Source of the DNA: Myxococcota bacterium | Lineage (GTDB): Bacteria > Myxococcota > UBA727 > JAHDBA01 | Assembly (NCBI GenBank): GCA_020630615.1 | Contig: JAHDBA010000001.1 | Location: 155,881 to 219,880 of the forward strand | Direction of reading: 5' to 3' | DNA: 64,000 bases | In this document: piece by piece, positions 7,204 through 63,042 of the stretch | Layout of the letters: every line of letters begins with the position of its first letter | How positions within the stretch are numbered: position 1 is the stretch's first letter | Translations under genes and position numbers: made by a program | Notes under the pieces: model-generated | The model's database searches: none | What the model saw: the letters and a program-made list of their open reading frames with translations, nothing else | What the model was told of the DNA's origin: nothing

Positions 7204-7253
7204 TATTCCCATATTCGAGACTTCTTCAACGCTGAAAAAATCGAGGCAAAGTG

Positions 7254-9020
7254 ATGGTTAACAAAACAAAAACTCATGGACTAATCTTTCTGAGTGGTTT
7301 GATCGTATTCGGGTCAACCTTTCTACATGCTGCCGATAGCGTTGAGAGTGACGTCGTCAGTAACGACAGCGCTGCGGGTGGAACTTTAGAAGAAGTTGCA
7401 CCTCGTTTTGAAGAAGTCGCAAGTGAACTGGAAGAAGCTGGTAGCGCGAGCTCCGCGACCGATGAACCCGCATACCCTGTCGAGCAAAACTGTGGTGACA
7501 AAATTGATAACGACAACGACGCACTGATTGATTGTGCTGATGCAGATTGTTATTCGAGCCCAGAATGCAAAAGCAGTGGTGGTGCCGAAGCGACTGACGC
7601 ACTTTGTAGTGATTTTATTGATAACGATAACGATGGGTATAAAGACTGCGATGACAAAGACTGCCAAGTCTCGACTGTAAGCGTATGTCGTGGCTCGTGG
7701 GATCGTCAAGCCGCGTCGCGCAGTTCGTCACGCTCATCGACAATCCCTTTGGTGCCTGCACGCGGCGATACATCATCAGCTTTGAAGCCAGGTATGGACG
7801 TAGAAGAGCTCATCGGCACCAACGGGGATGCTGACGGTGAGCGCAACAATATCATGTGTGCTGATGGTATCGATAACGACGGTGACGGCATGACAGATTG
7901 TGATGATGTGGGTTGTCGCTTTGACCCGATGGTGACTGTGTGCCGCGGCGTACCCGGGTTACGCTTCTCGCTTGTTTCGCATGTGAGCGCTGAGTTAAAG
8001 CATCAGAGAGACTATGCCGGTAGTGTGGTGCCTGCTCCTTCAAACTATTTGGGGACACCGGCTGATTTCTTCAGTGATGGTAGTGCGGATGTGCGTTTTA
8101 GTGCGCTTCAGCTTCGTGTGTTTGGGCCGATGCCTGGTATTCAAGATTCTTTCTTCTTCATCTCAACCCGAATGGAGAAAACACCACGTCTAACTTTCGC
8201 AATGGCGCAGTTTCCGATTAAGAATGGCCACTTTTTTGGTGTGAACAGTGGTGGCGGGGGTCTATCAAACGCGCTGATTCGTTCTGTCGCAAAACGAGCG
8301 TTAATAGACCCGCCCTTTTATCTTTACTCTGCCTTTGAGCAAGGCAATGGTGCAGCGATCGAGTTCAATGGCCCCATCATCCCAGGGACAATGGATTACC
8401 GCCTGTTTTTAGCGGGTGGTGCTGGTGTATTCAACGGTAATGTTGGTGGGCGATTCTTTAGCTTTGATAACAACAACTTTACCTACAGTGCAGGCGGTCA
8501 ACTGACGTTAAGCCCAATCGGTTACTACAACCGTTGGGACACCGAGTATCTTTATGTACCGGTACCCACGACATTGGGTATCAATATTGGTGCGCGTTGG
8601 GATCAACGTTCACAAGAGCGCTTTCCTGCTGTGAATATCTCATCCGTACTTCGTGCAGGTCGCTTTATCGGTGCTTTAGAAGGTTATGGGAAACGCGAGC
8701 TGAACTTTGATTCGTGGCAAGGTGCTTACAACGTAATGGTTGGCGGTTTGTTGATACCCAAGTATTTGTTCGTGGCTGCCGATGTGGGTCAGTTCATTTC
8801 AACCGATATGAAAAACCCACCAGCGGTGTTTCAGACAGACCTGCGTCGCCAGCGTGATACCTTTCAATACCGGCTCGGTCTGCACGTCTATGTTTGGAAG
8901 AACCTTGGTGTTCTGTCAGCAATCTTCACAGATAACTTCGAGGGGCCAGGTCCAAACAACGATGGTGACCCGAACACCAATGAACGTTCAGTCAAGTTGG
9001 TTGGCCAGTTTCGATTTTAG
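7254..9020 (+). CDS. Outer-membrane beta-barrel protein with N-terminal signal peptide and 3 Cys-rich DNDxDG repeats
   Basis: GAGG RBS 7 nt before ATG 7254; repeats CGDKIDNDNDALIDCADADC, CSDFIDNDNDGYKDCDDKDC, CADGIDNDGDGMTDCDDVGC; C-terminal ~400 aa has alternating beta-strand character and ends in …VGQFRF (terminal Phe typical of OMPs). Confidence 0.6.
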   Translation: MVNKTKTHGLIFLSGLIVFGSTFLHAADSVESDVVSNDSAAGGTLEEVAPRFEEVASELEEAGSASSATDEPAYPVEQNCGDKIDNDNDALIDCADADCYSSPECKSSGGAEATDALCSDFIDNDNDGYKDCDDKDCQVSTVSVCRGSWDRQAASRSSSRSSTIPLVPARGDTSSALKPGMDVEELIGTNGDADGERNNIMCADGIDNDGDGMTDCDDVGCRFDPMVTVCRGVPGLRFSLVSHVSAELKHQRDYAGSVVPAPSNYLGTPADFFSDGSADVRFSALQLRVFGPMPGIQDSFFFISTRMEKTPRLTFAMAQFPIKNGHFFGVNSGGGGLSNALIRSVAKRALIDPPFYLYSAFEQGNGAAIEFNGPIIPGTMDYRLFLAGGAGVFNGNVGGRFFSFDNNNFTYSAGGQLTLSPIGYYNRWDTEYLYVPVPTTLGINIGARWDQRSQERFPAVNISSVLRAGRFIGALEGYGKRELNFDSWQGAYNVMVGGLLIPKYLFVAADVGQFISTDMKNPPAVFQTDLRRQRDTFQYRLGLHVYVWKNLGVLSAIFTDNFEGPGPNNDGDPNTNERSVKLVGQFRF

Positions 9021-11582: not shown

Positions 11583-11806
11583 GATCGTCCTCGGAATATC
11601 CCCTAAATTCCGATCTTTCAGCCATTCTGTCAATTTTGTCGTTGGTTTAGAGCGTGAACACTTTTCAGGATTAGAAGATCGCTCTTTATCGCTTTTCATG
11701 AACGAAAATGGGACAGCGTCTCCCAAAAGAAAATTATTAGTAACACTCTTCACCACACCCTCGTTGTCTCTGTATCCACATCAAACGTGAACTAAGGAGT
11801 CCAACG

Positions 11807-12115
11807 ATGTTGAAAGAAAACAAGAAAGAAAGCCCAATCTCAAGAACAGGAATAATGACTTTTGGCGCAGTCGCCGCACTGATGATTTCAGCATGTGGCA
11901 GCGATTCCAACGCTGATGTCGATGCCAATGAAAGCGGAAACACAGAGTCGGAGCTTGTGCACTGCTACGGCATTAATGAATGTGCCGGTACAGCCGAATG
12001 CGCCGGTGCAAACAACGATTGTCAAGGCTTGAACGAGTGCGCAGGCCAAGGATTTATCTCCGTCACCCAAGCAGAATGTGATGAAGAAGGCGGCTCAACA
12101 GAAGCACCCGCATAG
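11807..12115 (+). CDS. Bufferin-like RiPP precursor (DUF2282 / multi-Cys bufferin-type) with lipoprotein-type signal peptide
   Basis: AAGGAG RBS 7 nt before the ATG; lipobox-like …LMISAC; core has CYGINECAG, AECAG, NDCQG, NECAGQG, AEC, matching the CYG…NDC…CAGQ pattern remembered for DUF2282/bufferin precursors; sits immediately upstream of a DUF692 gene. Confidence 0.6.
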   Translation: MLKENKKESPISRTGIMTFGAVAALMISACGSDSNADVDANESGNTESELVHCYGINECAGTAECAGANNDCQGLNECAGQGFISVTQAECDEEGGSTEAPA

Positions 12116-12147
12116 TTCTTACCCGCATTGATACGAAAGAGACGACC

Positions 12148-13062
12148 ATGAATTTTGAAATTGGTTTTGGCCTAAGAAGACCGCACTATGCAGAAATACT
12201 ACGAGAAGGCGTACGCGTTCCGGTGGTTGAGTGCATTAGTGAGAACCTTTTTCAGATGCGTGGTCGTCCTTTTCGTGTTGTGGAGAGAGCCCGTCAAAAT
12301 GCAGAACTTTTACTTCATGGGGTTTCGCTTTCGATTGGCGATATGGACGAAATCCCTACAGACACGTTAAAAGAGCTTCGAGAGCTTGATTCGATCCTTG
12401 AGGCAAAAGTGATTAGCGATCACTTGTGTTTTGGCCGCGCGCATGGTCGACGTGGATTTGACCTTTGGCCGCTCCCGATGAACGAAGCGATGATTTCTCA
12501 TTTGGTGGCTCGCATTGGTCGAGTGCAAGATGTCCTCGGTCGTCGCATTGCTCTAGAAAACATTTCTGCATACTGCCGCTTTGAAGCAGATGAAATGTCT
12601 GAAGTTGAATTCATCAATCAGATCTGTCTGCGTGCAGATTGCCTTCTTTTACTCGATCTCAATAATTTGCTCGTGAATGAGCGAAACTTTAACCAACCTG
12701 CAACCGAGTTTTTACAAGAGCTTGACTTAAGTCGCATTGCGCAAGTTCATGTCGGGGGTCATAGTGACCTGGGCACCCATGCATTTGATGATCATGCATC
12801 GCCACCGAGTGATGCGTGTATCCAACTCTTCGTGCACCTCACACAACTTCTGCAAGCCACAGAACTCAATCTCAAAAACACAGATGTATTCACAATCCTA
12901 GAGTGGGACGGAAATATTCCAAAGATTGAACGATTCTATCAAGAGACCCAGCGTCTCAAAAAAAGTATAGCGGGCATGCGTGCTACAAAGAGCATGAACA
13001 CAAAAATCGATGACTCTCTTTTCAATCTTGAGAAAGCCGAGCGAGAGGGTGTTCGCATATGA
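12148..13062 (+). CDS. MNIO enzyme (DUF692/UPF0276, MbnB/BufB-like)
   Basis: N-terminal EIGFGLRRPHY… start characteristic of DUF692; TIM-barrel-like length (~300 aa); 3' end overlaps the next gene (ATGA). Confidence 0.8.
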   Translation: MNFEIGFGLRRPHYAEILREGVRVPVVECISENLFQMRGRPFRVVERARQNAELLLHGVSLSIGDMDEIPTDTLKELRELDSILEAKVISDHLCFGRAHGRRGFDLWPLPMNEAMISHLVARIGRVQDVLGRRIALENISAYCRFEADEMSEVEFINQICLRADCLLLLDLNNLLVNERNFNQPATEFLQELDLSRIAQVHVGGHSDLGTHAFDDHASPPSDACIQLFVHLTQLLQATELNLKNTDVFTILEWDGNIPKIERFYQETQRLKKSIAGMRATKSMNTKIDDSLFNLEKAEREGVRI

Positions 13063-13949
13063 TCAAAAGCTTTGAAAACAAGCGAGCATTCGACAGTTCA
13101 CAATACATACACTCGGAAGTGAATCCGGATGCACTGGCTCACCTTCAGTCTGAGTTGGGTGCCTTTGCAGAATCAGCGCTCGGTATTGGCGTATTGCAAA
13201 CGCGCGGTCTGAGAGCTGCAGGTACATTGAGTGTTCAAGAGGCTGCATCTGTGTATGAAACAAGTTCGCGCCTAATTCGAGACCGTACAATTCAGACACT
13301 TTTTCCCGTGACGATGGCTTATCTTCATGATGTGAATGCCGACCACTCTGGCATCTTGAAAGAATACCGAGAGTGGCAACACGATAGGGGCGGCGCCCTA
13401 GAAACCTATGGTGAGGGTTTTCCTCGAGCATTGCAAACTTACAATGCCATTGCGGCTAAAATAGCGTTCTATGAATGGGAACGCTTTGCATCGCATCGAA
13501 TTGCGATTCCAAGGCCAGAAGGCAATCAAGCACTTGTGCTACCTGTCGAAAGATTCGCAAGCGAGGGTATGAAGCTTGGTTTGGACGCACCGAATGTACG
13601 TGTTTTCGAGACACAAGAAGCGTTAGCAGAAATGATGAAGTCCAGCACTCAAGCTGGGTCTCCTGCGCTTGATGAATCCGAAGAAATCTGCGGCATTTTG
13701 ATGAACCCCAGTGTTGCCGGTGTTCGGGAGCATATCGTATCACGCGTTCTTGTCGCTCTCGTTCGAGAACTGCAACGCTCGCGTGCGAATCATGATGTTA
13801 CGCCAGGAGGCCTTGTCGTAAAACTTCAACGCGATGGCTTTTCAGGTGTAGAAGTTGCCAGTGCACTTCGTGACGCCATTCACCATAAGCTTCTCATCAG
13901 TGAGGGGCGAACGATTGCATTTTCAAACTCAAAGAAAACCAAAGGATGA
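13059..13949 (+). CDS. Putative MNIO partner protein (DUF2063/BufC/MbnC-like)
   Basis: Translationally coupled to the DUF692 gene, as in bufferin/methanobactin operons; size fits; motif assignment (…FENKRAF…NPDA) is weak. Confidence 0.5.
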   Translation: MIKSFENKRAFDSSQYIHSEVNPDALAHLQSELGAFAESALGIGVLQTRGLRAAGTLSVQEAASVYETSSRLIRDRTIQTLFPVTMAYLHDVNADHSGILKEYREWQHDRGGALETYGEGFPRALQTYNAIAAKIAFYEWERFASHRIAIPRPEGNQALVLPVERFASEGMKLGLDAPNVRVFETQEALAEMMKSSTQAGSPALDESEEICGILMNPSVAGVREHIVSRVLVALVRELQRSRANHDVTPGGLVVKLQRDGFSGVEVASALRDAIHHKLLISEGRTIAFSNSKKTKG

Positions 13950-13955
13950 ATCCCG

Positions 13956-14477
13956 ATGATTGTAAATGACCGACAAGCACAGCCCGAAAATTTCAAGTTT
14001 TTAGTATTCTCGCTTCTCCTGCTTGTGAGTACGGGTGTTGCAACGGGCTGTGGTGCGGACTCGAGCGGTGATGATAGCAGCAATACCGAAGAACGTGATG
14101 TGACAATTCCAGGGCCGTTGATGAGGCCTGGGCAAAACTGTTTAGCATGTCATGCGGAAGGGTTTGGGGAAGATGCTCCACCTTTTTCTTTTGCCGGTAC
14201 GATCTTTCCCACAGGGGATTCCGGTCCACTTGAAGGCGTGGAAGGTGTCTTGATTCATGTCAAAGACTCGATGGGGGTTGAGGTTGACCTCACCACGAAT
14301 GAAGCGGGTAACTTCTATACGATGGCCTCGCTGACGCCACCCTTTGTTGACGTGACCATCACCTACAATGAAGAGTCAATTTCGATGCCGATTGAAGCGC
14401 CTGCAGGCTCTTGCAACGCGTGTCACAATGCGTCGAATCCAGTTGGAAACGCGGCCGGGGCAATTCGGCTGCCCTAA
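13956..14477 (+). CDS. Lipoprotein with two CxxCH haem-c binding motifs (putative dihaem cytochrome c)
   Basis: Signal peptide + lipobox VATGC; CLACH and CNACH motifs; 7 nt after the preceding gene (operon-like). Confidence 0.55.
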   Translation: MIVNDRQAQPENFKFLVFSLLLLVSTGVATGCGADSSGDDSSNTEERDVTIPGPLMRPGQNCLACHAEGFGEDAPPFSFAGTIFPTGDSGPLEGVEGVLIHVKDSMGVEVDLTTNEAGNFYTMASLTPPFVDVTITYNEESISMPIEAPAGSCNACHNASNPVGNAAGAIRLP

Positions 14478-14548
14478 TTCAAACAAAAAAAAAGCTTGGC
14501 AGGGGCCATTTCTCCTTCCAAGCTTCGATAATCTCGCAAGCTGATTTG

Positions 14549-14923
14549 CTACTCTTCCGTCGTATAGAAGAACTCTTCTTTCGTAATTTGATTGTTTTCA
14601 ACGGTGTAAAGGCCGACCTCTGAGAATGCTTGTTTCTCCAGAGTTTCTCTGTTGGTCGTTTCAAAGTCGTAATAGACTGCAAACTGGTTTCCGTTTGGGA
14701 AAGGGCCGCGGGCTTCAGCCTTATTTACCTCAAAGGTTTTGTACCACCATTCTGATTTCCCTCTGACTTGGGCCTTTCCTTGAATCGTTCTTGGCATTTC
14801 AGGGGTATCGGCTCTTGCTTCCGTGCTCGTGATGTTTTCCGCATAGAGTTTATCGATTGCTTCAAGATTTTGACCTTTCTGCACATACTCCACGAGTTCT
14901 TTACCTATTTTCCACGCTGTCAT
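14549..14923 (-). CDS. NTF2-like/SnoaL-like domain protein
   Basis: ~124-aa alpha+beta protein with an NTF2-like pattern; convergent with the cytochrome gene; weak 8-bp-stem hairpin (aagcttgg…ccaagctt) in the 71-bp gap. Confidence 0.45.
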   Translation of the reverse strand: MTAWKIGKELVEYVQKGQNLEAIDKLYAENITSTEARADTPEMPRTIQGKAQVRGKSEWWYKTFEVNKAEARGPFPNGNQFAVYYDFETTNRETLEKQAFSEVGLYTVENNQITKEEFFYTTEE

Positions 14924-40307: not shown

Positions 40308-40979
40308 TTACAGGTTCTTTTCTTTGCTCAACTCTATTACACCATAAATAGAGCGCGTTTTGAGTGGCCAGCCACCAACAAAGATAGAAGGTGTACCGCG
40401 CACTTTGGCTTTGGTTTGACCAAGCTTCATGTCAGCTGTGATTTGCTCTTCGTACTTCTTATCGTTATTTTTACAGTTGGCCTCAAACTTGGCTACATTA
40501 AGACCAATCTCGCCGGCCCATTTTTTGAAATTTTCTGCTTTAAGCGCTTTTTGGTTTTCATAAAGTTTTTCAGACATCTTCCAGAAAAACTCATAGCCTT
40601 GCTCACGAGCTGCCTTCACGGCCTTCGCTGCTGGTTTTGCATCTTTGTGGAATGAAAGTGGGAAGTCCTTGAAGACGAAATTAACTTTGTCTTTAAGCTC
40701 AGGGTCTTTAACGATGTCGTGAAGCATCGGGTCAACACGCGAGCAGAAAGGACATTGGTAATCGGTGACGATTGTGCCGTTAACTTTTGCATCTTTCTTA
40801 CCCATAACCGGGCTCGTACCTACAGGGATATCATATGCAGCCTTTTGCTCTGGTGGAGCCATTTTACCGCCGCGAAGCAATACGCGTTTCTCGCGCGCAC
40901 TAACTTTCTTTTCACGAGCTTTAACCTCTTCTTTCTCCGCTTTTGTATGTGCAAAGAAAGTAGGAGAGATGCTCATCAC
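40308..40979 (-). CDS. DsbA-family thiol:disulfide oxidoreductase, truncated paralog without signal peptide
   Basis: CPFC active site; body ~85% identical in nucleotide sequence to the upstream paralog, but the first ~45 codons (lipoprotein signal peptide) are missing. Confidence 0.6.
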   Translation of the reverse strand: MMSISPTFFAHTKAEKEEVKAREKKVSAREKRVLLRGGKMAPPEQKAAYDIPVGTSPVMGKKDAKVNGTIVTDYQCPFCSRVDPMLHDIVKDPELKDKVNFVFKDFPLSFHKDAKPAAKAVKAAREQGYEFFWKMSEKLYENQKALKAENFKKWAGEIGLNVAKFEANCKNNDKKYEEQITADMKLGQTKAKVRGTPSIFVGGWPLKTRSIYGVIELSKEKNL

Positions 40980-41640
40980 AACGATTTAAGTACATACTAA
41001 AGTTCAAGGATACGATTTGGACATAAGGACATCTCGCTGTTGTAGGTATTGAGCGCAAGATGTTTTCTATTCTATCACGAAAAAAGCCCGCATAAGCGGG
41101 CTTAAAACGTTGTGTGACTAATAAGTTTAGCTTGCAAGCTTTTTGTCTTTAATCATTTGTTTCACGCCATCAACAGAGCGTTGTTTGAGTTGCCACCCAC
41201 CAACGAAGATAGAAGGTGTGCCACGAACTTTAGCTTTGGTTTGCCCAAGCTTCATGTCTGCAGCAATTTGCTCTTCATATTTCTTGTCATTGTTTTTAAG
41301 ATCAGCTTCAAACTTGGCTACGTTAAGCCCAATCTCGCCAGCCCATTTTTTGAAGTTTTCTGCTTTAAGCGCTTTTTGGTTTGCATAAAGTTTTTCAGAC
41401 ATTTTCCAGAAGAACTCGTCACCTTGCTCTTTTGCAGCAAGCGCTGCTTTTGACGCTGGTTTTGCATCTTTGTGGAATGAAAGTGGGAAGTGTTTGAAGA
41501 CAACATTAACTTTGTCCTTAAGCTCTGGGTCTTTCACGATGTCGTGAAGCATCGGGTCAACACGTGAACAGAAAGGACATTGGTAATCGGTGAAGATTGT
41601 CACGTTAACTTTTGCATCTTTCTTACCCATAACTGGGCTC
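40330..41640. repeat. Tandem direct duplication (~650-bp units) covering the two DsbA-like genes
   Basis: Long nearly identical nucleotide blocks (e.g. ccaccaacaaagatagaaggtgt…aagcttcatgtc… in both copies). Confidence 0.6.
41079..41103 (-). terminator. Rho-independent terminator for the upstream DsbA gene
   Basis: aagcccgc-ataa-gcgggctt hairpin with AAAAAA on the plus side (U-tract on minus). Confidence 0.7.
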
Positions 41641-41846
41641 GCACCCACTGGGATTTCATATGCAGTCTTTTGCTCAGGTTGAGGTGGACGCGCTGCTTTA
41701 CCCGCAGGGCGTTTCTCAAGTGCAGTCACCTTCTTCTCAAGAGCTGCAATTTTGTCTTCAAGTGCTTTGGTATCAGCCGCAGGTGCAGGAGGCTGACATG
41801 CTGCTGTAATCATCGCGACGACAGTCAATACTACTAATTTTTTCAT
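41127..41846 (-). CDS. DsbA-family thiol:disulfide oxidoreductase lipoprotein
   Basis: AGGAGA RBS, signal MKKLVVLTVVAMITAAC, coiled-coil linker, CPFC thioredoxin active site. Confidence 0.7.
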   Translation of the reverse strand: MKKLVVLTVVAMITAACQPPAPAADTKALEDKIAALEKKVTALEKRPAGKAARPPQPEQKTAYEIPVGASPVMGKKDAKVNVTIFTDYQCPFCSRVDPMLHDIVKDPELKDKVNVVFKHFPLSFHKDAKPASKAALAAKEQGDEFFWKMSEKLYANQKALKAENFKKWAGEIGLNVAKFEADLKNNDKKYEEQIAADMKLGQTKAKVRGTPSIFVGGWQLKQRSVDGVKQMIKDKKLAS

Positions 41847-42081
41847 GGTTGTTCTCCTATCGCATGAGGAAATGCCTACGGCGTCCACGCGTTGCCTTGT
41901 TCTGCCAAAATGCGCAATAAAAGCAACCGGCATCTCGCTCGATACGCTAAAAAACACAAATCGCATCGGAAAATGCCACAGCAATGTAGGCGAAGCCTGG
42001 GTCTGGGTACCCGATTGGTTATTATTCCTCCTGAAGTTGTCATTCGTGTTGAGAGGTTGTTAGGCTCAAGTAGAAGGTAAT

Positions 42082-48378: not shown

Positions 48379-49694
48379 AGGTAAGACTTGAAGTGGCCCC
48401 ACAAGAAACGTTGTGGGTACCTTTTAATCAAAAACTACTGAACGCAGCGAAATTTTTGTCGGTATTGACGATCGTGATTGGTGGTCTTGTGCTTGTTTTG
48501 CCATGGCGACAGAACATTTCTGTTACGGGGCAGGTCACTGCGCTAGACCCTAATATGCGGCCACAGGATATCGAAGCGCCGCTTAAAGGTGTCATTAAAA
48601 CCTGGCACGTTCGGGAAGGTGATTATGTTGAAAAGGGTGCATTGCTCGTGACTCTGGTCGACAACGATCCCTTGTACCAAGATCGTATCCAACAGCAGTT
48701 GAATGCCTCAGCGCAAAAACTAAAGCTCTACGAAGAGAAAGAAAATCAGGAGGGTGAGCGCCTCAACGCACTTATCGCGGAGAAAGGGGCAATCTTGGAT
48801 TCCCTGATTCATGAAGTCGAGATGATTCGGGAACAGGTGAGTAAGTCTGAGGCTGAACTCATGGGTGTTCGTTCAAAAGCGAAAACCGCAGAGTTAAATT
48901 ACAAGCGAACTCAAGAGTTATTTCAGAAAGGGCTTCGTTCGCAACGCGATCAAGAACTTGCACAAATGAAAGCAGAAACGACGAGCGCTGCACTTCAGCA
49001 ATATCAAGCGGGGTTGTCAGAGAAACGGTCGAAGTTGAAGTCGACGCAGGCTAAGGTTCAAGAAAAACGGGCTGCCTTGAAAGCCGCACAAGCAAAGCTT
49101 AATGTCGCGATTACAGATATCAAGACTTCTCAACAAGATGCACAGAAAGAAGTTCAAGAAAAAGAGGTGGTGTTTGCTCGACAAAAAAACCAGGAAATTC
49201 GTGCCGCACGCTCGGGTATGGTGACGCAAATTTATAAGGCTGGAGCAAACGTTCAAGTCAAGCAGGGCGATTCACTACTCACAATGGTTCCCCAAAGTCA
49301 GGACCGCATTGTTGAACTCTTTGTTACGGGTAGAGATATTGTTCTGGTTCGACTGGGAACACACGTCCGACTCCAATTTGAAGGATGGCCTGCGATCCAG
49401 TTTGCGGGTTGGCCGTCAATCGCCATTGGCTCTTTCGGGGGTAAAGTTGTTTCAATACAAGCTCAGCATCTGAGCTCAAAACAAGGATATCGAGTTCTTG
49501 TCGAACCGGATGGCGATGTTGAGTGGCCGGATTCAAGATTTCTTTATCAGGGGCTTAAAGCGAAGGGGTGGCTCATTCTTAATCGAGTGAGTCTCGGCTT
49601 TGAAATATGGCGACAGTTGAATGGTTTCCCGCCTACCGGTCAACTTTTTGATAAGCCCGAAAAGGCGCCAAAGTTTAAAGGTAAAAAGTTATGA
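48375..49694 (+). CDS. HlyD-family membrane-fusion (periplasmic adaptor) protein
   Basis: N-terminal TM, long coiled-coil, C-terminal beta domain; ATGA overlap with the upstream gene. Confidence 0.8.
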   Translation: MKVRLEVAPQETLWVPFNQKLLNAAKFLSVLTIVIGGLVLVLPWRQNISVTGQVTALDPNMRPQDIEAPLKGVIKTWHVREGDYVEKGALLVTLVDNDPLYQDRIQQQLNASAQKLKLYEEKENQEGERLNALIAEKGAILDSLIHEVEMIREQVSKSEAELMGVRSKAKTAELNYKRTQELFQKGLRSQRDQELAQMKAETTSAALQQYQAGLSEKRSKLKSTQAKVQEKRAALKAAQAKLNVAITDIKTSQQDAQKEVQEKEVVFARQKNQEIRAARSGMVTQIYKAGANVQVKQGDSLLTMVPQSQDRIVELFVTGRDIVLVRLGTHVRLQFEGWPAIQFAGWPSIAIGSFGGKVVSIQAQHLSSKQGYRVLVEPDGDVEWPDSRFLYQGLKAKGWLILNRVSLGFEIWRQLNGFPPTGQLFDKPEKAPKFKGKKL

Positions 49695-51167
49695 TGCCTC
49701 GAAACATTCAAAAAATGCTGTCACTTCAGCGAACTTACGTCTTGGTTGGCCTTGTCTTGTGTCGATTCGGGCACGCAGCTGAAGTTGAGAATGTCATTTC
49801 CAATGTTTCGGGTGAAAAAGAGTTGTTACAAGATTTTTTGAGCAATGTGCGCGTACAGCATGAGCAGTTTCGCGTTTTTGAGCAGCGTGTGCGTGCCGCC
49901 GAAGCAAATCTGCAAGGGAAGCTCGGCGTGTTTGATCCAAAAATTTACGGCGGTATTCGAGGGCGCACGGGCAAGAACGAGTGGTTGCAGGGGGAAGTAG
50001 GAGTCAAAACTTTACTCCCTTGGTACGGGGTGGAGGCAAGCGTTGGTTATGAAAATTCTGACGGCATCTTCGAGGATTACGAAGGGGCGTACCGGACAAC
50101 CGTTGGTGGAGACTGGGTCGCAAAGCTTCGAGTCCCGGTGTTGAGGGGAGGTTGGTATGACGAAGCGCGCTGGGATCGTGACGAAAGTGTTCTTAAGCTT
50201 GAACTTGTCAATCAAGAGGTGCGAGGACTGGAGCTGGAGTTTCAGTATGAAGCTCTTGAGGCTTTGTGGCGCGCACGAATTGCCGAACGTAAACGTCGTC
50301 TTTACGAAGAAATGGTGACACGAGCTCGAGAAAGAGTTTCGATGATCACGAGTGAAGTCAATGCGGGGAATCGCGCGGAAATAGACCTTGTTGAGGCGCA
50401 CTCGATGCTTGACGACCGAAATGCGCATTTGAAGCGTGCAGAGGCGAAGCTTTCATCTGAAGAAGAGAAATTGTCATTTTTTGCAATGTTTCCGAAGGAA
50501 GGTTCGAACGCACTGGTTGAACAGCATTCAGAGACTCTCGAAGAACATTCCGAACGCTCCCAATGAAATGTGCGAAGACTCCAAATGGATCGAGCGTCAT
50601 CCCAAAATTCTCATGTTGGATGTCAAACTTGAATTGAATGAGCTTCTGAATCGAATGGCAACCAATGAACTTATGCCGAGACTTGACCTCAATGCAAAGT
50701 TGGAGCTTGACACCTTGTCTTTGAATGAAGGGAGTTCGAATAATTATTTCATCGGATTGGATGGTGAATCGTCAATTTTATTGAGGAAGGGACGGGGTAT
50801 ATCAAATATGGCCAAAGCAAATCAAAGGGCGTTGCAAGCTAAACGTGGGGTTCAGGGGCGTGAGTTGCGACAGAAGTGTCGAGCGGCATATCAAGTTCTC
50901 TCTGGCTATGAAGATGCAACCGGCTTTTTAAGTTCGCGAGTGAGTGCGATGACACGGCTGACGGAAGCAGCGCAAAGTGAATTTGCCGTCGGAGCAGGCG
51001 ATCTTATCGACGTCAACGTTCGAGAGTCAAAAGAGATCAAGGCACGAATCGAGTATATTGAAAATCTGGGAGCCGCTCATATCAATGCGGTTCGTTTATT
51101 TGCGATGATGCGTTTGGCTCCCAAGAGTTATCTTGATGCACTCTTTGCTAGCGAATTATCAAACTGA
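49691..51167 (+). pseudogene. TolC-like outer-membrane factor split across two reading frames (apparent frameshift near 50436-50566)
   Basis: First OEP repeat is in frame 2 (49691-50566), second OEP repeat in frame 3 (50436-51167); combined length ~490 aa equals a normal TolC. Confidence 0.55.
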
Positions 51168-51361: not shown

Positions 51362-52723
51362 CTACATTGCTACTGTTTCTGTTTCAGGGCTCGCAAGTTC
51401 TTCTGAAGAAGGTTTGAGTAGAGCAAGGGCGAAAGAGAGTACACCTAGCCGCCCCATAAACATTAGAACTGATATCATGAGCAGTCCAAAATCGTCTAAG
51501 GTTGAAGTTGCACCTAATGAAAGCCCAACGGTGCTTAGCGCGGATACGGCTTCAAACAAAATAGAGAATCCAGAGAGCTTCACATCTTGTGATACGAATA
51601 GACAGAAAATGGCGCCTAAAAGAATTGCTCCATACGAAATGAACGATGATAACGCTAAAAATTGGTTCTTTTTGGGTATACGTACACTTAGAAATGTGAC
51701 GTGTGAGCGACTTTTAGTTACCGATTGGAGGATGGCCCACAACGCAGTGACTGATGTCGTCTTAATACCACCGCCCGTCCCAGCAGGGGACGCACCGATT
51801 GCCATCACGACAAGGATGATAAGGAGGGAGGCGCGTGACATTGTATTGAGGTCAATCGAGTTAAGGCCGACTGTCGTATGTGCAGAAAGAATTTGGAAGA
51901 ATGCGTCGAGTGTGCCGGTACCACGGGGATGCAACCAGCTCCAGTCCGCAAAGAAAGATAAAAGGGTCGCTCCCAGGCAAATCAGAGACGATGTACACAC
52001 AATTATCTAGGAGGTTTGTGTCATACGTGGTTGATGACGAATTAATCGGAGCCAACCGTCGAGAAGAACAATGAAACCGAGTGAGCCTAGAAGGGAAATA
52101 ATTGCGCTCGTATATAGAATGAGTGGAGATGAAGAAAAGTCGCCTAGTGAGTTTTCGAAGAGACTAAAACCAGCCGTGCAAAAAGTAGAGATGCTATGAA
52201 AGAGCGCCATCCAAAGAGGATCCTCTACACCGGCGTTCTGAAAACCCAGATAGAGTATCAAGGCACCACAAGCCTCAATAAGGAGTGTGAAAATGACAAC
52301 GCTGTAAATAAAAGTAAAAGTGGGATATTCATCTGGAAGGTTAAAGTCGAGCTTTAATAACCTGAGCGATAACGTGTCCATTCGACGGCGACAACTGAGG
52401 ATGATGAAGCCACTGATTGCCATATATCCGATGCCACCAATCTGAATAAAGAAGAGTGAAAAAAAGTGTCCCAAAGTGGTGAAATCTTCTGCAAAGTTGG
52501 TTGGGGCAAGTCCGGTGGTACTGACGATAGAAATTGCGTAAAATAGTATTTGAATCGAAGTGAGTTCTTCGTAGCGACTAAAGGGTAGGTAGAGAAGTAC
52601 AAAACATATGAAGCAGAGCAGCAAATATCCGATAATCAGCAAACGGATCGCAGTGCGAGCCGCATTACCTTTAATCGTGAGACGATTTAGAATGAGAGAC
52701 CACAACTCTTTCAGGGAAATCAC
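51362..52723 (-). pseudogene. ktrB: TrkH/KtrB-family K+ transporter membrane subunit interrupted by an in-frame TAG
   Basis: N-terminal half (52007-52723) and C-terminal half (51362-52000, GTG-initiated in the ORF track) share one frame, separated by TAG at 52007-52009; GGGIKT, CTAGF, LSTVGLS selectivity-filter-like motifs are spread over both halves. Confidence 0.55.
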
Positions 52724-55899: not shown

Positions 55900-55915
55900 T
55901 GGCACGTTGATTGCA
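55900..55915 (+). promoter_or_regulatory. Sigma-54 (-24/-12) promoter TGGCACG-N4-TTGCA
   Basis: ttGGcacgttgatTGCa with exact consensus spacing, 24 nt after the activator stop and ~28 nt before the mscS start. Confidence 0.6.
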
Positions 55916-55942
55916 AAACCTTGGGTAAAGGAGATGCACTCT

Positions 55943-56929
55943 ATGCTTGAAGATTTAACGACACACGACTTATCACTAACTGACATCGACAAGATCTTAT
56001 CAACCAACCTTTTTACGATTGGAGATGAGACATTTACTATCGGGACGCTCATTGTTTTGAGTGCTCTAATGTTAATAGGGCATTTCGTGAGTATTTTTGT
56101 AGCCCGGGGTACGAAGAAACTGCTTGAACAGACGGCTTTTCCTCGAGCAAAATGTATTGTTGTATCCAAGGTGGTTCATTTTACCACTTGGTTTTTTGCT
56201 TTGACGGTATCGTTGAGTGTTGTTGGTGTAGAAATTTCCGCGCTCTTTGCGGCCGGCGCAGCATTTGCTGTAGTGCTTGGTTTCGCGTTGCAACATTTAG
56301 CCCAAAATTTTGTGAGTGGCGTTATCTTATTATTGGAGGGCCGAATCCGGCGAGGTGATATTATCGAATACGATTCGCGCATTGTACAGGTGCAGACCAT
56401 CGGACTTCGGTCCACACTTGCGCGTACCTTTGACGAAGATGAGCTTATCATCCCGAACAAAGAGTTGGCCGACAAAGCCGTTCACAACAGGTCGCTATCA
56501 GATACTTTGGTTCGAGTACAGACCCAGGTGAGTGTGGCTTATGGCGTCGATCCAGATAACGTTTCTAGTGTACTAAAGAGCGCAGTTGAAAAACATGAGT
56601 TTAGTTTGAAGTCTCGCGACCCTCTCGTGAATTTAATCGAGTTTGCAGACTCCGGACTACTCTATGAGGTGTCGATGTGGACGAAGCGTCCTTCGAAACG
56701 CTATCGGGACCGAGGTTTGCTAAATACACTGATTTATAAAGCGTTACGGGATGCTCAGATTGAGATCCCCTATCCACACCTTCAGCTTAATATCGCCAAC
56801 GTAGATAGGCTTGAGAAAAATGCGTTAAATCCAAGTGAAAATCAACATTCAAAGGGCATTTCACAACGAGATTATGACAGTCCCTGTTCGTCGCCCTTTT
56901 CAGTGAACAGGACTGAGGCGTCCGCATAG
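55943..56929 (+). CDS. mscS: Small-conductance mechanosensitive channel (MscS family)
   Basis: MscS TM3/beta-domain signature …FAVVLGFALQHLAQNFVSGVILLLEGRIRRGDIIEYD…; AGGAG RBS 9 nt before ATG 55943. Confidence 0.75.
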   Translation: MLEDLTTHDLSLTDIDKILSTNLFTIGDETFTIGTLIVLSALMLIGHFVSIFVARGTKKLLEQTAFPRAKCIVVSKVVHFTTWFFALTVSLSVVGVEISALFAAGAAFAVVLGFALQHLAQNFVSGVILLLEGRIRRGDIIEYDSRIVQVQTIGLRSTLARTFDEDELIIPNKELADKAVHNRSLSDTLVRVQTQVSVAYGVDPDNVSSVLKSAVEKHEFSLKSRDPLVNLIEFADSGLLYEVSMWTKRPSKRYRDRGLLNTLIYKALRDAQIEIPYPHLQLNIANVDRLEKNALNPSENQHSKGISQRDYDSPCSSPFSVNRTEASA

Positions 56930-56979
56930 GTGGAGGTCGTCAACCCTCTAGAATTTCTCACATTAACAAAGGAAACCCA

Positions 56980-57327
56980 ATGAACATCACGGATTATACA
57001 GATAATCAAACACGCATAAAAAGATTTAATAAGTTAGACAAGCACTGCCGTGCCAAAAGGAAAGATATCCATAAGGCTAAGATACGCTCTTCAGAAGCAA
57101 GTTGGGCCAAAGTCATGACACTATCACTCGTCTTGCCTGTTTTTATCGTATCAACGATGGCAATTACTCTAGAAAATATTGTGTTGGGTGCGTGTGCAGT
57201 CATCCTTTTTCTCTGCATGATTCTCTTTATGTATCGAGCTTTTGTTCAAACCATTGGGAACGGATCAAGTCTGGAACAAAACCGAAGAGACTTACACAGA
57301 ATTCAAAGGATTCAGCAAAACTATTGA
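56980..57327 (+). CDS. Small hypothetical membrane protein
   Basis: Basic N-terminus then two hydrophobic helices. Confidence 0.3.
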   Translation: MNITDYTDNQTRIKRFNKLDKHCRAKRKDIHKAKIRSSEASWAKVMTLSLVLPVFIVSTMAITLENIVLGACAVILFLCMILFMYRAFVQTIGNGSSLEQNRRDLHRIQRIQQNY

Positions 57328-57635
57328 TTGAAACCCTAAGAAAGTCGCAATTCGCTAAGTGAGGTAAACTTTGGCGTGGAGAGATTAGGAGTGTAACAAA
57401 GCCTGGTGATATCCAACATGAAAAGCCCGCGTGTAGCGAGCTTCACACCCTCACGGGGTACCAACCAAATGTGAGTTACCTTGAGAGGCCCTCCTCCTCA
57501 ACAAAGATAGACACAGAATAGGCCATCAATGCGCTTCGTCTATCGGTAGAGTGGGGGATGGCATTTGGCTTAAAGCCCCAGTTCAAGTGAAGACTGGCCG
57601 AAGGCGGAAGATTTCGCTATACTGACAAGACGCAT

Positions 57636-58006
57636 GGGGGCGATTTTGGATTCGACGGGGGTAGGAAGAGATAAGTTGCATGTCCCGCCTGAATGGCGAG
57701 CGGGTTAATAAATGCCTTTCAACGTAATAACTGCAAACGATAATGTAGAACTTGCAATGGCTGCCTAAACCGTAGTTGCATTGCCGTCGCTCCGAGGTTG
57801 TCTGTGCTGAGGAACTAGCGGCGCCAACCCAGCAGGCTGGATGATGTGTTGGTTCTCTTTGGCCCATCATTGAGATTAAGGAGAGAGCCTCTAGATGAAA
57901 GCCTGTTTGTGGGCGCGCATTTAGAAAATTAAATCACAAAATAAACATGTAGATGCTTATGTTGGACGACTTTCGGACGCGGGTTCGACTCCCGCCGCCT
58001 CCACCA
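57636..58006 (+). ncRNA. ssrA: tmRNA (transfer-messenger RNA, SsrA), one-piece, CCA encoded
   Basis: 5' GGGGGCGATTTTGGATTCGACGGGG…; 3' …GGACGCGGGTTCGACTCCCGCCGCCTCCACCA; acceptor stem has G3-U pair; internal tag ORF gca aac gat aat gta gaa ctt gca atg gct gcc taa (ANDNVELAMAA). Confidence 0.9.
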
Positions 58007-61697: not shown

Positions 61698-61778
61698 TTA
61701 ATGACGATTTCTCAGAGGAAGGTAGAGTCCAAGTAGAAAGTGTGGGGTAGTTCACCCCAAATCAAGCAGGACGTGTTC

Positions 61779-62612
61779 ATGAATGAAATTGTTAACAAAG
61801 CACTTTTTACTATTTCCGGGACTGCCGTTACGATCTCCACAGTGATTGCGGTATTCTGTATCATAATGACGACTCTGCTGGTGCGTCATATCGTTTCAAG
61901 AGCGATAGAGAGAACTTTTAGCCACATTGGCACGATGCGAGATGGTGCATTGCGATCTGTGCAAAAACTGATCGGCTATGGGATTTTTCTGCTTGGTCTA
62001 TTGGTAGCCCTTAGTACACTAGGTGTTGATATAAGTGCTCTTTTTGCAGCCGGTGCATTTTTTGCGGTGGCGATCGGTTTTGCGATGCAAAATATCACGC
62101 AGAATTTTGTGAGTGGAGTTATTCTTTTAGTTGAGCGAGCGATTACACCTGGAGATGTCATCGAGTTGGATGGTCAGGTGTTGAGGGTTCAATCCATGGG
62201 GATTCGCTCGACGATTGCTAGAACATTTGATGAAGATGAAGTCATTATCCCCAACTCAAACATTGTTCAGGTTGCGGTTAAGAATCGAACACTCTCAGAT
62301 ACTATTGCACGGGTGAAAACATCGGTAAGTGTCGGATATGATTCCGATTTAAACCATGTTCGTGACACCTTGATGACATGTGCAAAGAGCTTCCCTTTTC
62401 GACGCCAGGACCGTGACCCGGTGATTGTATTGAATGAGTTAGGAGATAGCGCACTAGTATTCGATATCGCGATATGGACCTCGATGCCCGGTGAACGCTA
62501 CATCCACCGTGGTGAACTCAATGTGCAAATCATCGACTCTCTTCGCTCCGCCGGGATCGAAATACCGTTCCCGCAAAGAGTTATTCACAATGTGAACACG
62601 ATGTCCGAGTAA
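61779..62612 (+). CDS. MscS-family mechanosensitive channel, diverged paralog of 55943-56929
   Basis: …FAVAIGFAMQNITQNFVSGVILLVERAITPGDVIELDG…; roughly half the residues identical to the first MscS. Confidence 0.7.
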   Translation: MNEIVNKALFTISGTAVTISTVIAVFCIIMTTLLVRHIVSRAIERTFSHIGTMRDGALRSVQKLIGYGIFLLGLLVALSTLGVDISALFAAGAFFAVAIGFAMQNITQNFVSGVILLVERAITPGDVIELDGQVLRVQSMGIRSTIARTFDEDEVIIPNSNIVQVAVKNRTLSDTIARVKTSVSVGYDSDLNHVRDTLMTCAKSFPFRRQDRDPVIVLNELGDSALVFDIAIWTSMPGERYIHRGELNVQIIDSLRSAGIEIPFPQRVIHNVNTMSE

Positions 62613-62858
62613 TATGCTCCATCACCCGCTGCTAGGTTGGCTACAGCTACATTTTTGTTGAAGCCGAGTGATGTTTAATTTGGGAGATGTTACGAACGTC
62701 CAATCTTTGAGAAGCAAACCAGATCGAAGGCCGTGTAGAATCGATTGAAGACGTTGGTGCTGATACATAAGTGGTCTGAAGCTCTTTTCACATGTGAGGC
62801 CGTCTCTGAAAGGGTATCGTCAGAAACATAGTGCTCACCAGTAGAATGTTCATCCTCA

Positions 62859-63042
62859 TCCAACGTGAAAAGCCCGCGTGTAGCGAGCTTCACACCCTCA
62901 CGGGGTACCAACCAAATGTGAGTCATCTTAAGAGGCCCCTGTTTGTGGGCGCGCATTTAGAAAATTAAATCACAAAATAAACATGTAGATGCTTATGTTG
63001 GACGACTTTCGGACGCGGGTTCGACTCCCGCCGCCTCCACCA
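62859..63042 (+). repeat. Direct repeat: ~80-bp copy of the segment found 150 bp upstream of ssrA, fused to a copy of the last ~105 nt of tmRNA (ends …CCACCA)
   Basis: 62859-62937 matches 57412-57490; 62938-63042 matches 57902-58006 almost base for base; the tmRNA 5' two-thirds (tag ORF, PK1-3) is absent. Confidence 0.85.

Follow-up and report, generated by a model that had tools for sequence, protein, structure and literature searches.

Bufferins, which were described in 2024, form the largest group of ribosomally synthesised peptides with post-translational modifications (RiPPs) made by MNIO enzymes. A bufferin operon carrying an additional, cytochrome-like gene lies in a 64,000-nucleotide stretch of a Myxococcota genome (assembly GCA_020630615.1, contig JAHDBA010000001.1, positions 155,881 to 219,880 of the forward strand). 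This whole stretch is referred to as the window and positions are counted from its first letter. Four co-directional open reading frames (ORFs) are found between positions 11,807 and 14,477, and their sequences identify them as a real operon for a Buf2-type bufferin with a presumably co-transcribed fourth gene. The operon is a lineage-specific variant of the known Buf2 bufferin system, an identity that is well supported; the role of the fourth gene product, a probable dihaem cytochrome, we infer from its sequence and its associations.

Organisation of the operon

The four genes are the following.

11807-12115, plus strand: gene 1, bufA2-type bufferin precursor (102 residues; NCBIfam NF050166)
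12148-13062, plus strand: gene 2, bufB-like MNIO (DUF692) maturase (304 residues; PF05114)
13059-13949, plus strand: gene 3, putative highly divergent bufC-like partner with a DUF2063 N-domain and a C-domain resembling a RiPP recognition element (RRE) (296 residues)
13956-14477, plus strand: gene 4, probable dihaem c-type cytochrome lipoprotein (173 residues; CxxCH motifs and synteny)

An earlier note, made from the DNA alone, had proposed at this place a bufferin-type MNIO RiPP operon with a dihaem c-type lipoprotein in place of DoxX. This core claim is supported and all four ORFs were found, on the plus strand, where they had been announced. Their packing is slightly different from what had been described: genes 2 and 3 do overlap by ATGA (13059-13062), but the spacing of 7 nt given for the others was measured as 32 nt between genes 1 and 2 and 6 nt between genes 3 and 4. 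A divergent gene borders the operon on its 5' side, and a SnoaL-like gene (14549-14923, minus strand) converges on it from the 3' side. The ORFs are not chance ones, since genes 1, 2 and 4 match families or homologues significantly and the gene order is kept in other genomes.

A bufferin precursor of the BufA2 family

Three parts can be distinguished in the precursor gene.

11807-11893, plus strand: predicted lipoprotein signal peptide of gene 1, residues 1-29
11885-11896, plus strand: lipobox ISAC of gene 1, with Cys30
11957-12100, plus strand: six-Cys core domain of gene 1, residues 51-98

The gene 1 product scores 75.4 bits against the NCBIfam model NF050166 (Cu_RiPP_BufA2; cutoff 60), with residues 21-98 aligned to positions 6-78 of the 79 of the profile. 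It passes the BufA2 model and is therefore assigned by its sequence to the six-Cys Buf2 family (BufA2, Buf_6/12Cys) and not to DUF2282 (BufA1, Buf1). The protein had thus been rightly recognised as a multi-Cys bufferin precursor but wrongly linked to DUF2282. Besides the lipobox Cys30, the core contains C53, C59, C65, C72, C78 and C91. These six core cysteines had been counted correctly, although only five of their contexts had been listed; the sixth is AECDE. The precursors of syntenic operons in other genomes show the same Cys pattern, some of them as a duplicated 12-Cys form.

The N-terminal region consists of K/R followed by the hydrophobic segment FGAVAALM and by ISAC, a pattern that reads as a Sec-type export signal. 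A lipobox is present in every syntenic precursor. It had been called unusual for such a peptide, which does not hold: about 16% of the Buf2 precursors are predicted lipoproteins (PMC12452194). In the Buf2 bufferin of Caulobacter, the first and last cysteines are linked by a disulfide and the four central ones carry −4 Da modifications corresponding to thiooxazoles (PMC11626156). By analogy, C59, C65, C72 and C78 of the gene 1 product would be the modification sites, and they are expected to be converted into 5-thiooxazoles in a product that would bind copper, as is known for Caulobacter Buf2 (PMC11626156).

The MNIO maturase

The gene 2 product begins with MNFEIGFGLRRPHY. It matches PF05114 with 253 bits (cutoff 25) over profile positions 2-260 of 263, and among PDB entries it is matched best by 3BWW, a DUF692 structure (E=2e-30). 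The characteristic motifs LLHG (residues 55-58), SDHL (90-93), LEN (136-138), LDLNN (169-173), VHVGGH (200-205), DDH (214-216) and EWD (252-254) are present, and these His/Asp/Glu motifs align with those of MbnB, TglH and 3BWW. The individual metal ligands are presumed to be those of the MbnB structures. The sequence clearly identifies gene 2 as encoding an MNIO and not a generic TIM barrel, in agreement with what had been claimed for it.

A candidate BufC beyond the reach of Pfam

Gene 3 is encoded directly 3' of the MNIO gene, with the ATGA overlap mentioned above, and had been proposed to encode the DUF2063 (BufC) partner on account of this position. The family searches speak against it: the product reaches only 12.5 bits against Pfam DUF2063 (PF09836; cutoff 27.2, E=0.18) and is thus below threshold. 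The NCBIfam scan, a pairwise BLASTP comparison with the syntenic BufC proteins and a sequence search of the PDB gave no match, and a search of 5.8 billion proteins returned the gene 3 product alone. A profile built from 16 DUF2063 proteins of equivalent operons nevertheless matches gene 3 with 17.1 bits (E=1.5e-7, for a single target). Residues 52-223 are aligned colinearly, none of 2000 shuffled sequences scored above 9.5 bits, and the family-conserved residues Y66, P83 and E139 are kept.

The AlphaFold2 (AF2) model of the protein has a predicted local distance difference test score (pLDDT) of 81.1 and a predicted template modelling score (pTM) of 0.75. It comprises a helical N-terminal half and a C-terminal half made of a strand and three helices. 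Its top match in the PDB is 3DEE (NGO1945), the founding DUF2063 structure (E=7e-4, template modelling score 0.62 normalised to the target), a match that is partly circular because the input alignment of the model was made of DUF2063 proteins (29 of them); this counts against giving it full weight. From the sequence profile and the model, gene 3 is concluded to encode a very divergent BufC. The proposal thus fails by Pfam and is upheld by the profile of syntenic proteins, the shuffle control, the conserved residues and the predicted fold. A BufC partner can diverge beyond Pfam detection, which matters for genome-mining pipelines that require a DUF2063 match.

Gene 4 and the family of its module

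The following elements are located in gene 4, which had been described as coding for a lipoprotein with two CxxCH motifs and indeed has the features of one.

14040-14051, plus strand: lipobox ATGC of gene 4, with Cys32
14139-14153, plus strand: CLACH motif of gene 4, residues 62-66
14190-14387, plus strand: beta-sandwich of gene 4, residues 79-144, as predicted in the AF2 model
14412-14426, plus strand: CNACH motif of gene 4, residues 153-157

Lipoboxes also occur in the homologues of gene 4. The residues M56, C62, C65, H66, M144, C153, C156 and H157 are invariant in the family (nine of nine sequences), and two invariant CxxCH motifs together with two invariant methionines are what two His/Met-ligated c-type haems would require. 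Gene 4 probably encodes a dihaem c-type cytochrome with His/Met ligation of both haems. The AF2 model shows a confident beta-sandwich core of the transthyretin/CarboxypepD_reg type. No curated Pfam or NCBIfam family is matched above its cutoff, the best being Cytochrome_C7 with 19.9 bits against a cutoff of 24.8.

A HMMER scan of 1.84 billion representative proteins identified 3,307 proteins with the gene 4 module (about 3,300 at 50% identity). Up to 23 matched stretches are present in some of them, the CxxCH-beta-sandwich-CxxCH unit recurring in tandem, and some multi-module relatives pass the thresholds of multihaem Pfam families (Cytochrome_C7, Paired_CXXCH, MtrC-type). Among these proteins are the giants P0033 (3367 residues), P0090 (3750 residues) and P0145 (5282 residues), with 15-23 matched stretches. 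Gene 4 thereby exposes a large uncurated family of CxxCH-beta-sandwich-CxxCH modules with neither a Pfam model nor a solved structure.

The main rival to the cytochrome assignment is that gene 4 encodes a periplasmic Cu(I)-binding lipoprotein, in which CxxC, His and Met ligands would be borne by a beta-sandwich as in CusF, CopC or PcoC. Such a protein would act as a chaperone or sink, giving copper to the anchored bufferin or taking copper from it. The operon context is copper-related (BufA2 match; PMC11626156), the invariant Cys, His and Met residues are all well suited to bind Cu(I), the core has no classical cytochrome fold but a beta-sandwich like that of transthyretin/CarboxypepD_reg, and the window protein is above the cutoff of no curated cytochrome family. 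Against this, a CxxCH motif with an invariant His right after the second Cys is the haem c signature, and both motifs are found family-wide. The family moreover comprises thousands of proteins, including tandem ones with up to 23 stretches and members passing the Cytochrome_C7, Paired_CXXCH and MtrC-type thresholds. Its sister clades are paired with a four-His membrane protein and a YceI protein (see below), which is a typical electron-transfer arrangement. We consider the copper-binding lipoprotein unlikely and retain the dihaem cytochrome.

Association of the cytochrome with bufferin genes in other genomes

The closest homologues of gene 4 all lie in the same context, i.e. small ORF, MNIO, DUF2063 and cytochrome genes in this order (five of five contexts). 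One of these belongs to Sorangium sp. So ce302, whose counterpart operon passes both the BufA2 and the BufB equivalog cutoffs, its BufB homologue scoring 328.2 bits where 310 are needed. A scan for gene 4 homologues with one genome per GTDB species yielded 58 loci, mostly labelled Myxococcota or (delta)proteobacteria. In the group of closest cytochromes, precursor, MNIO and DUF2063 genes are directly upstream at every locus with enough upstream sequence; none of the distant homologues among the 58 species loci is preceded by these three genes. The 18 MNIO-linked cytochromes, that of the window included, form one clade in a neighbour-joining tree, which is crude and without bootstrap, and almost all of their loci are labelled Myxococcota. 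The cytochrome is a conserved, clade-specific partner of these Buf2-type operons and not a one-off.

In three proteins (P0019, P0040 and P0054) the two last genes are fused in frame: a complete BufC is followed by a hydrophobic segment ending in a lipobox Cys and then by the cytochrome. The position of one of them is given here.

Locus L065, 593-1825: BufC-cytochrome fusion P0040

One BufC-cytochrome fusion was confirmed on the contig DNA, directly after the MNIO gene, and in both fusion contexts an ECF (extracytoplasmic function) sigma gene then follows. The topology of the fusions, with a cytoplasmic BufC, a membrane segment and a periplasmic cytochrome, is coherent and argues for a physical and functional link between the two proteins. 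Since every syntenic precursor has a lipobox, the peptide and the cytochrome would be co-anchored. A further protein, P0024, was considered as a fusion; it has no in-frame BufC C-terminal motif and was treated as a likely frameshift and left out of the count. In the Polyangiaceae loci L008-L011, a single uninterrupted reading frame spans MNIO and DUF2063 and points to BufB-BufC fusions.

The cytochrome gene could also be viewed as a functionally unrelated passenger that merely happens to lie 3' of the bufferin genes. Bufferin clusters can do without their fourth gene, as was found for DoxX (PMC11626156), and the wider cytochrome family is mostly not located beside MNIO genes. This explanation is nonetheless disfavoured and appears very improbable, as the order is kept in 18 loci of divergent genomes with genes overlapping or nearly abutting, the MNIO-linked cytochromes constitute a single clade and some relatives are fused in frame to BufC.

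DoxX (PF07681) has no match in the four operon products or in the flanking genes, the scan of the window having covered, outside of the operon, the ORFs of at least 150 residues. PF07681 is also absent from the syntenic contexts that carry precomputed Pfam annotation. That DoxX is missing as fourth gene is thus borne out, for the operon as well as for its annotated counterparts. The replacement of a "usual" DoxX by a cytochrome had been presented as an oddity. The cytochrome is there, but DoxX is not universal: the Caulobacter buf2 cluster comprises A, B and C only, without DoxX, and DoxX is dispensable in this organism (PMC11626156).

The sister clade of the cytochrome is encoded in conserved operons of another kind, in the order four-His membrane protein, YceI-domain protein, dihaem cytochrome (L019, L020, L021, L022, L024, L025, L026 and L037; e.g. 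L025 4700-6360). At about 200 residues, the membrane protein contains four hydrophobic segments along with four conserved His; it is matched by neither Pfam nor NCBIfam and may be a b-type cytochrome. These partners suggest an electron-transfer role for the gene 4 module. The operons recall the cytochrome b561-like (YceJ/CybB) and YceI modules; the window operon, unlike those modules, has neither a four-His membrane protein nor a YceI protein. In L021 and L025, a weakly cupredoxin-like gene is located 5' of the four-His/YceI/cytochrome operon. In L025, a DUF2063 gene and a gene for a zf-HC2 anti-sigma factor are located about 3.7 kb upstream of this operon.

Putative promoter and boundaries

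Three further features border the operon.

11740-11765, plus strand: putative ECF (sigma-F-like) promoter GTAACA-N16-CGTT, beginning 67 nt 5' of the precursor ATG
11794-11799, plus strand: Shine-Dalgarno sequence AAGGAG of gene 1, read from the sequence, with a 7-nt spacer to the ATG at 11807
14492-14525, no strand assigned: hairpin between the end of gene 4 and the convergent SnoaL-like gene (−24.1 kcal/mol, z=−2.05)

The site at 11740-11765 is the sole match to GTAAC-N17-CGTT on both strands of the 64 kb window. In the syntenic loci, GTAAC-N16/17-CGT[AT] is found 5' of the precursor in 11 of 13, mostly as GTAACC-N15/16-CGTA, and only 12 occurrences exist in all on both strands of these 13 loci (272 kb). 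In Caulobacter, buf1 and buf2 are driven from a sigma-F site with the sequence GTAACC-N16-CGAA (PMC3511200). The upstream search for ECF promoter elements, which had been recommended, therefore did find a sigma-F-like motif, with a reservation: it was counted as two mismatches away from the Caulobacter consensus, the number allowed in the published search (PMC3511200). The CorE and CorE2 literature yielded no consensus that could be used for the promoter.

ECF sigma genes are adjacent to the cluster in L004, in L065 and on the contig of P0019. According to a published survey, sigma and anti-sigma genes are found in Buf1 clusters and not in Buf2 clusters; other conserved genes occur "in extremely low proportions" (PMC12452194). 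Putative ECF-type promoters and ECF sigma genes accompany the present Buf2-type clusters.

On the 3' side, an A9 run precedes the hairpin at 14492-14525, so that its minus-strand reading is a stem followed by a U-run. A simple terminator scan did not call this hairpin, and the scan for sigma-70 promoters and terminators returned hits at chance level only. The hairpin likely marks the operon boundary, on weak evidence.

Proposed function of the cytochrome

We read the operon as a bufA2-bufB-bufC variant that occurs almost only in Myxococcota-labelled genomes, with a dedicated dihaem lipoprotein acting as its redox partner (probability of about 0.7). Transcription of the operon would start from the sigma-F-like (ECF) promoter, presumably as a response to copper or metal stress, as the conserved motif suggests. 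In the cytoplasm, the MNIO BufB and the divergent BufC would turn C59, C65, C72 and C78 of the precursor into 5-thiooxazoles, by analogy with Caulobacter Buf2. The precursor would then be exported by the Sec pathway and lipidated at Cys30, and a C53-C91 disulfide would complete a membrane-anchored, copper-binding metallophore, as its sequence and the same analogy indicate. The gene 4 product would likewise be exported, lipidated at Cys32 and loaded with two haems, probably with His/Met ligation. The least certain step is the last one, in which it would serve as redox partner of the bufferin in the same compartment. One possibility is that it carries electrons between the bound copper (Cu(I)/Cu(II)) and the respiratory chain; alternatively, it could act on the thiol/disulfide state of the thiooxazole peptide. 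Such a redox-partner role appears to be the most likely one for the cytochrome.

Several points weigh against this interpretation, in addition to those raised for gene 3. MNIO_BufB (NF050167), the NCBIfam model that fits gene 2 best, gives 242.8 bits where its equivalog cutoff requires 310. Around both CxxCH motifs, the AF2 model of gene 4 has low confidence, and neither profile nor fold searches retrieved a solved relative from the PDB. Haem attachment, copper binding and electron transfer are proposed for gene 4 and its operon from sequence. The window promoter motif is two positions off the consensus of its relatives, and no ECF sigma gene is present among the window ORFs of at least 150 residues, nearly all of which were scanned. 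The accessory fourth gene may finally have a subtle or different role, since neither modification nor copper protection depends on DoxX in Caulobacter.

The cytochrome may instead work in maturation, by forming the C53-C91 disulfide, by further oxidising the exported peptide or by exchanging electrons with the iron cluster of the MNIO. Its tight position in the operon, 6 nt after bufC, and the BufC-cytochrome fusions, which tie it physically to the maturation partner, are in line with this idea, as are the Caulobacter bufferin congeners that differ by 2 Da and represent redox states (PMC11626156). On the other hand, BufB and BufC suffice for the modification in vitro, and the Caulobacter buf2 cluster works as ABC (PMC11626156). 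The lipoprotein signal places the gene 4 product outside the cytoplasm, whereas the MNIO and BufC lack signal peptides; electrons destined for the MNIO would need a route across the membrane, and the operon does not encode a membrane protein bearing a cofactor. Two DsbA-like genes of the window could form the disulfide. A maturation role is accordingly judged to have a small probability. A direct supply of electrons from the cytochrome to the MNIO was rejected, the two proteins being on opposite sides of the membrane.

Under the redox-partner interpretation, a bolder and more speculative version may be formulated, which is possible but doubtful: the bufferins of this lineage would not be passive copper buffers but one half of a membrane-anchored redox couple, the dihaem lipoprotein exchanging electrons with thiooxazole-bound copper or with the peptide thiol/disulfide. 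If true, copper detoxification (Cu(I) oxidation or Cu(II) reduction) would be connected through this couple with the respiratory chain, and the BufC-cytochrome fusions would mark an inner-membrane-spanning assembly for both maturation and function. A role would also be assigned to the unexplained fourth gene of bufferin clusters, and CxxCH-beta-sandwich-CxxCH would be a new and widespread haem-binding domain.

Comparison with known systems

The closest characterised system is buf2ABC of Caulobacter vibrioides (PMC11626156). Both comprise a six-Cys precursor of the BufA2 family with an export signal, then an MNIO and a DUF2063-type partner. The window operon further has a putative ECF sigma-F-type promoter like that of Caulobacter, and its expected product is likewise a small copper-binding protein with thiooxazoles. 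Unlike buf2ABC, the window operon has the order A-B-C-cytochrome, its precursor is predicted to be a lipoprotein and a dihaem lipoprotein gene is added. Its BufC is missed by Pfam, its BufB is below the equivalog cutoff and the window ORFs scanned include no gene for a sigma or anti-sigma factor.

The buf1ABCD/DoxX clusters (PMC11626156; PMC12452194) share with the window operon a layout of four genes, the last of them coding for an envelope protein that is presumed to be of oxidoreductase type. DoxX (BufD, PF07681) is an integral membrane protein, in contrast with gene 4, which codes for an unrelated soluble-domain lipoprotein with two CxxCH motifs. Gene 4 is thus a non-homologous occupant of the same operon slot, which does not imply functional equivalence. 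The present lineage has fixed in the same slot another accessory gene, apparently of redox type, whose probable dihaem cytochrome product is predicted to be lipid-anchored like the peptide and is sometimes fused to BufC. Electron transfer in bufferin function therefore becomes testable.

Bufferin and c-type cytochrome domains are likewise linked in the reported Buf1|Cytochrom_C and Buf1|Cytochrom_C|FGE-sulfatase fusions (PMC12452194). In these, the precursor (Buf1, DUF2282) is fused to a class I cytochrome c (PF00034). Gene 4, unlike this domain, is a separate gene from a different and uncurated family, is associated with Buf2 and is fused to BufC in some relatives. A signal peptidase II lipobox that makes the modified peptide a lipoprotein is also a feature of the lipidated MNIO RiPPs of DybA/chryseobasin-like type; their MNIO chemistry (ChrH-type) and precursor family differ from those of the window operon (PMC13056109). 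The same paper mentions lipidated bufferins, as well as lipoproteins that are encoded in bufferin clusters without being RiPPs, among them a 'hypothetical protein' cluster IX (PMC13056109). No separate cytochrome c gene partner is described in the bufferin and MNIO literature searched, cluster IX of PMC13056109, which might correspond to the gene 4 lipoprotein, being excepted.

Other features of the window

Two genes for DsbA-like thioredoxin-fold proteins are present on the minus strand (40308-40979 and 41127-41984) and adjoin an MgtE transporter gene; this pair could supply periplasmic disulfide formation for the bufferin. The five window proteins that were looked up are all singletons at 90% identity. 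The GC content of the window is about 47%, and the syntenic relatives appear GC-rich from a reading of their sequences. The source seems to belong to a lineage that has been little sampled, in keeping with how extremely gene 3 has diverged. By the clade position of its cytochrome, it would be a relative of Myxococcota with a moderate GC content.

Near the 5' end of the window, the ORF 7251-9020 encodes a 589-residue protein with a signal-like N-terminus and the repeated Cys/Asp-rich pattern C.D.IDNDNDG..DC.D.DC, without a Pfam match. It is located downstream of a gene for an OmpA/thrombospondin-type-3-repeat protein (80-2017).

Two genes appear split: an OEP outer-membrane efflux protein into the overlapping ORFs 49691-50566 and 50436-51167, and a TrkH cation transporter into the adjacent minus-strand ORFs 51362-52000 and 52007-52723. 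They could be frameshifts, pseudogenes or assembly errors. A transfer-messenger RNA (tmRNA) is encoded at 57636-58006 on the plus strand (Rfam, 178 bits, full match) and was confirmed by ARAGORN, with the tag ANDNVELAMAA. A second Rfam match on the plus strand (62756-63042) is weak, with 51.4 bits for a gathering threshold of 47, and is not called by ARAGORN. Both are located just 3' of MscS-family genes (55907-56929 and 61740-62612), and the paired MscS/tmRNA units (55907-58006 and 61740-63042) look like the outcome of a segmental duplication, or of the insertion of an island at ssrA with a degenerate copy left behind.

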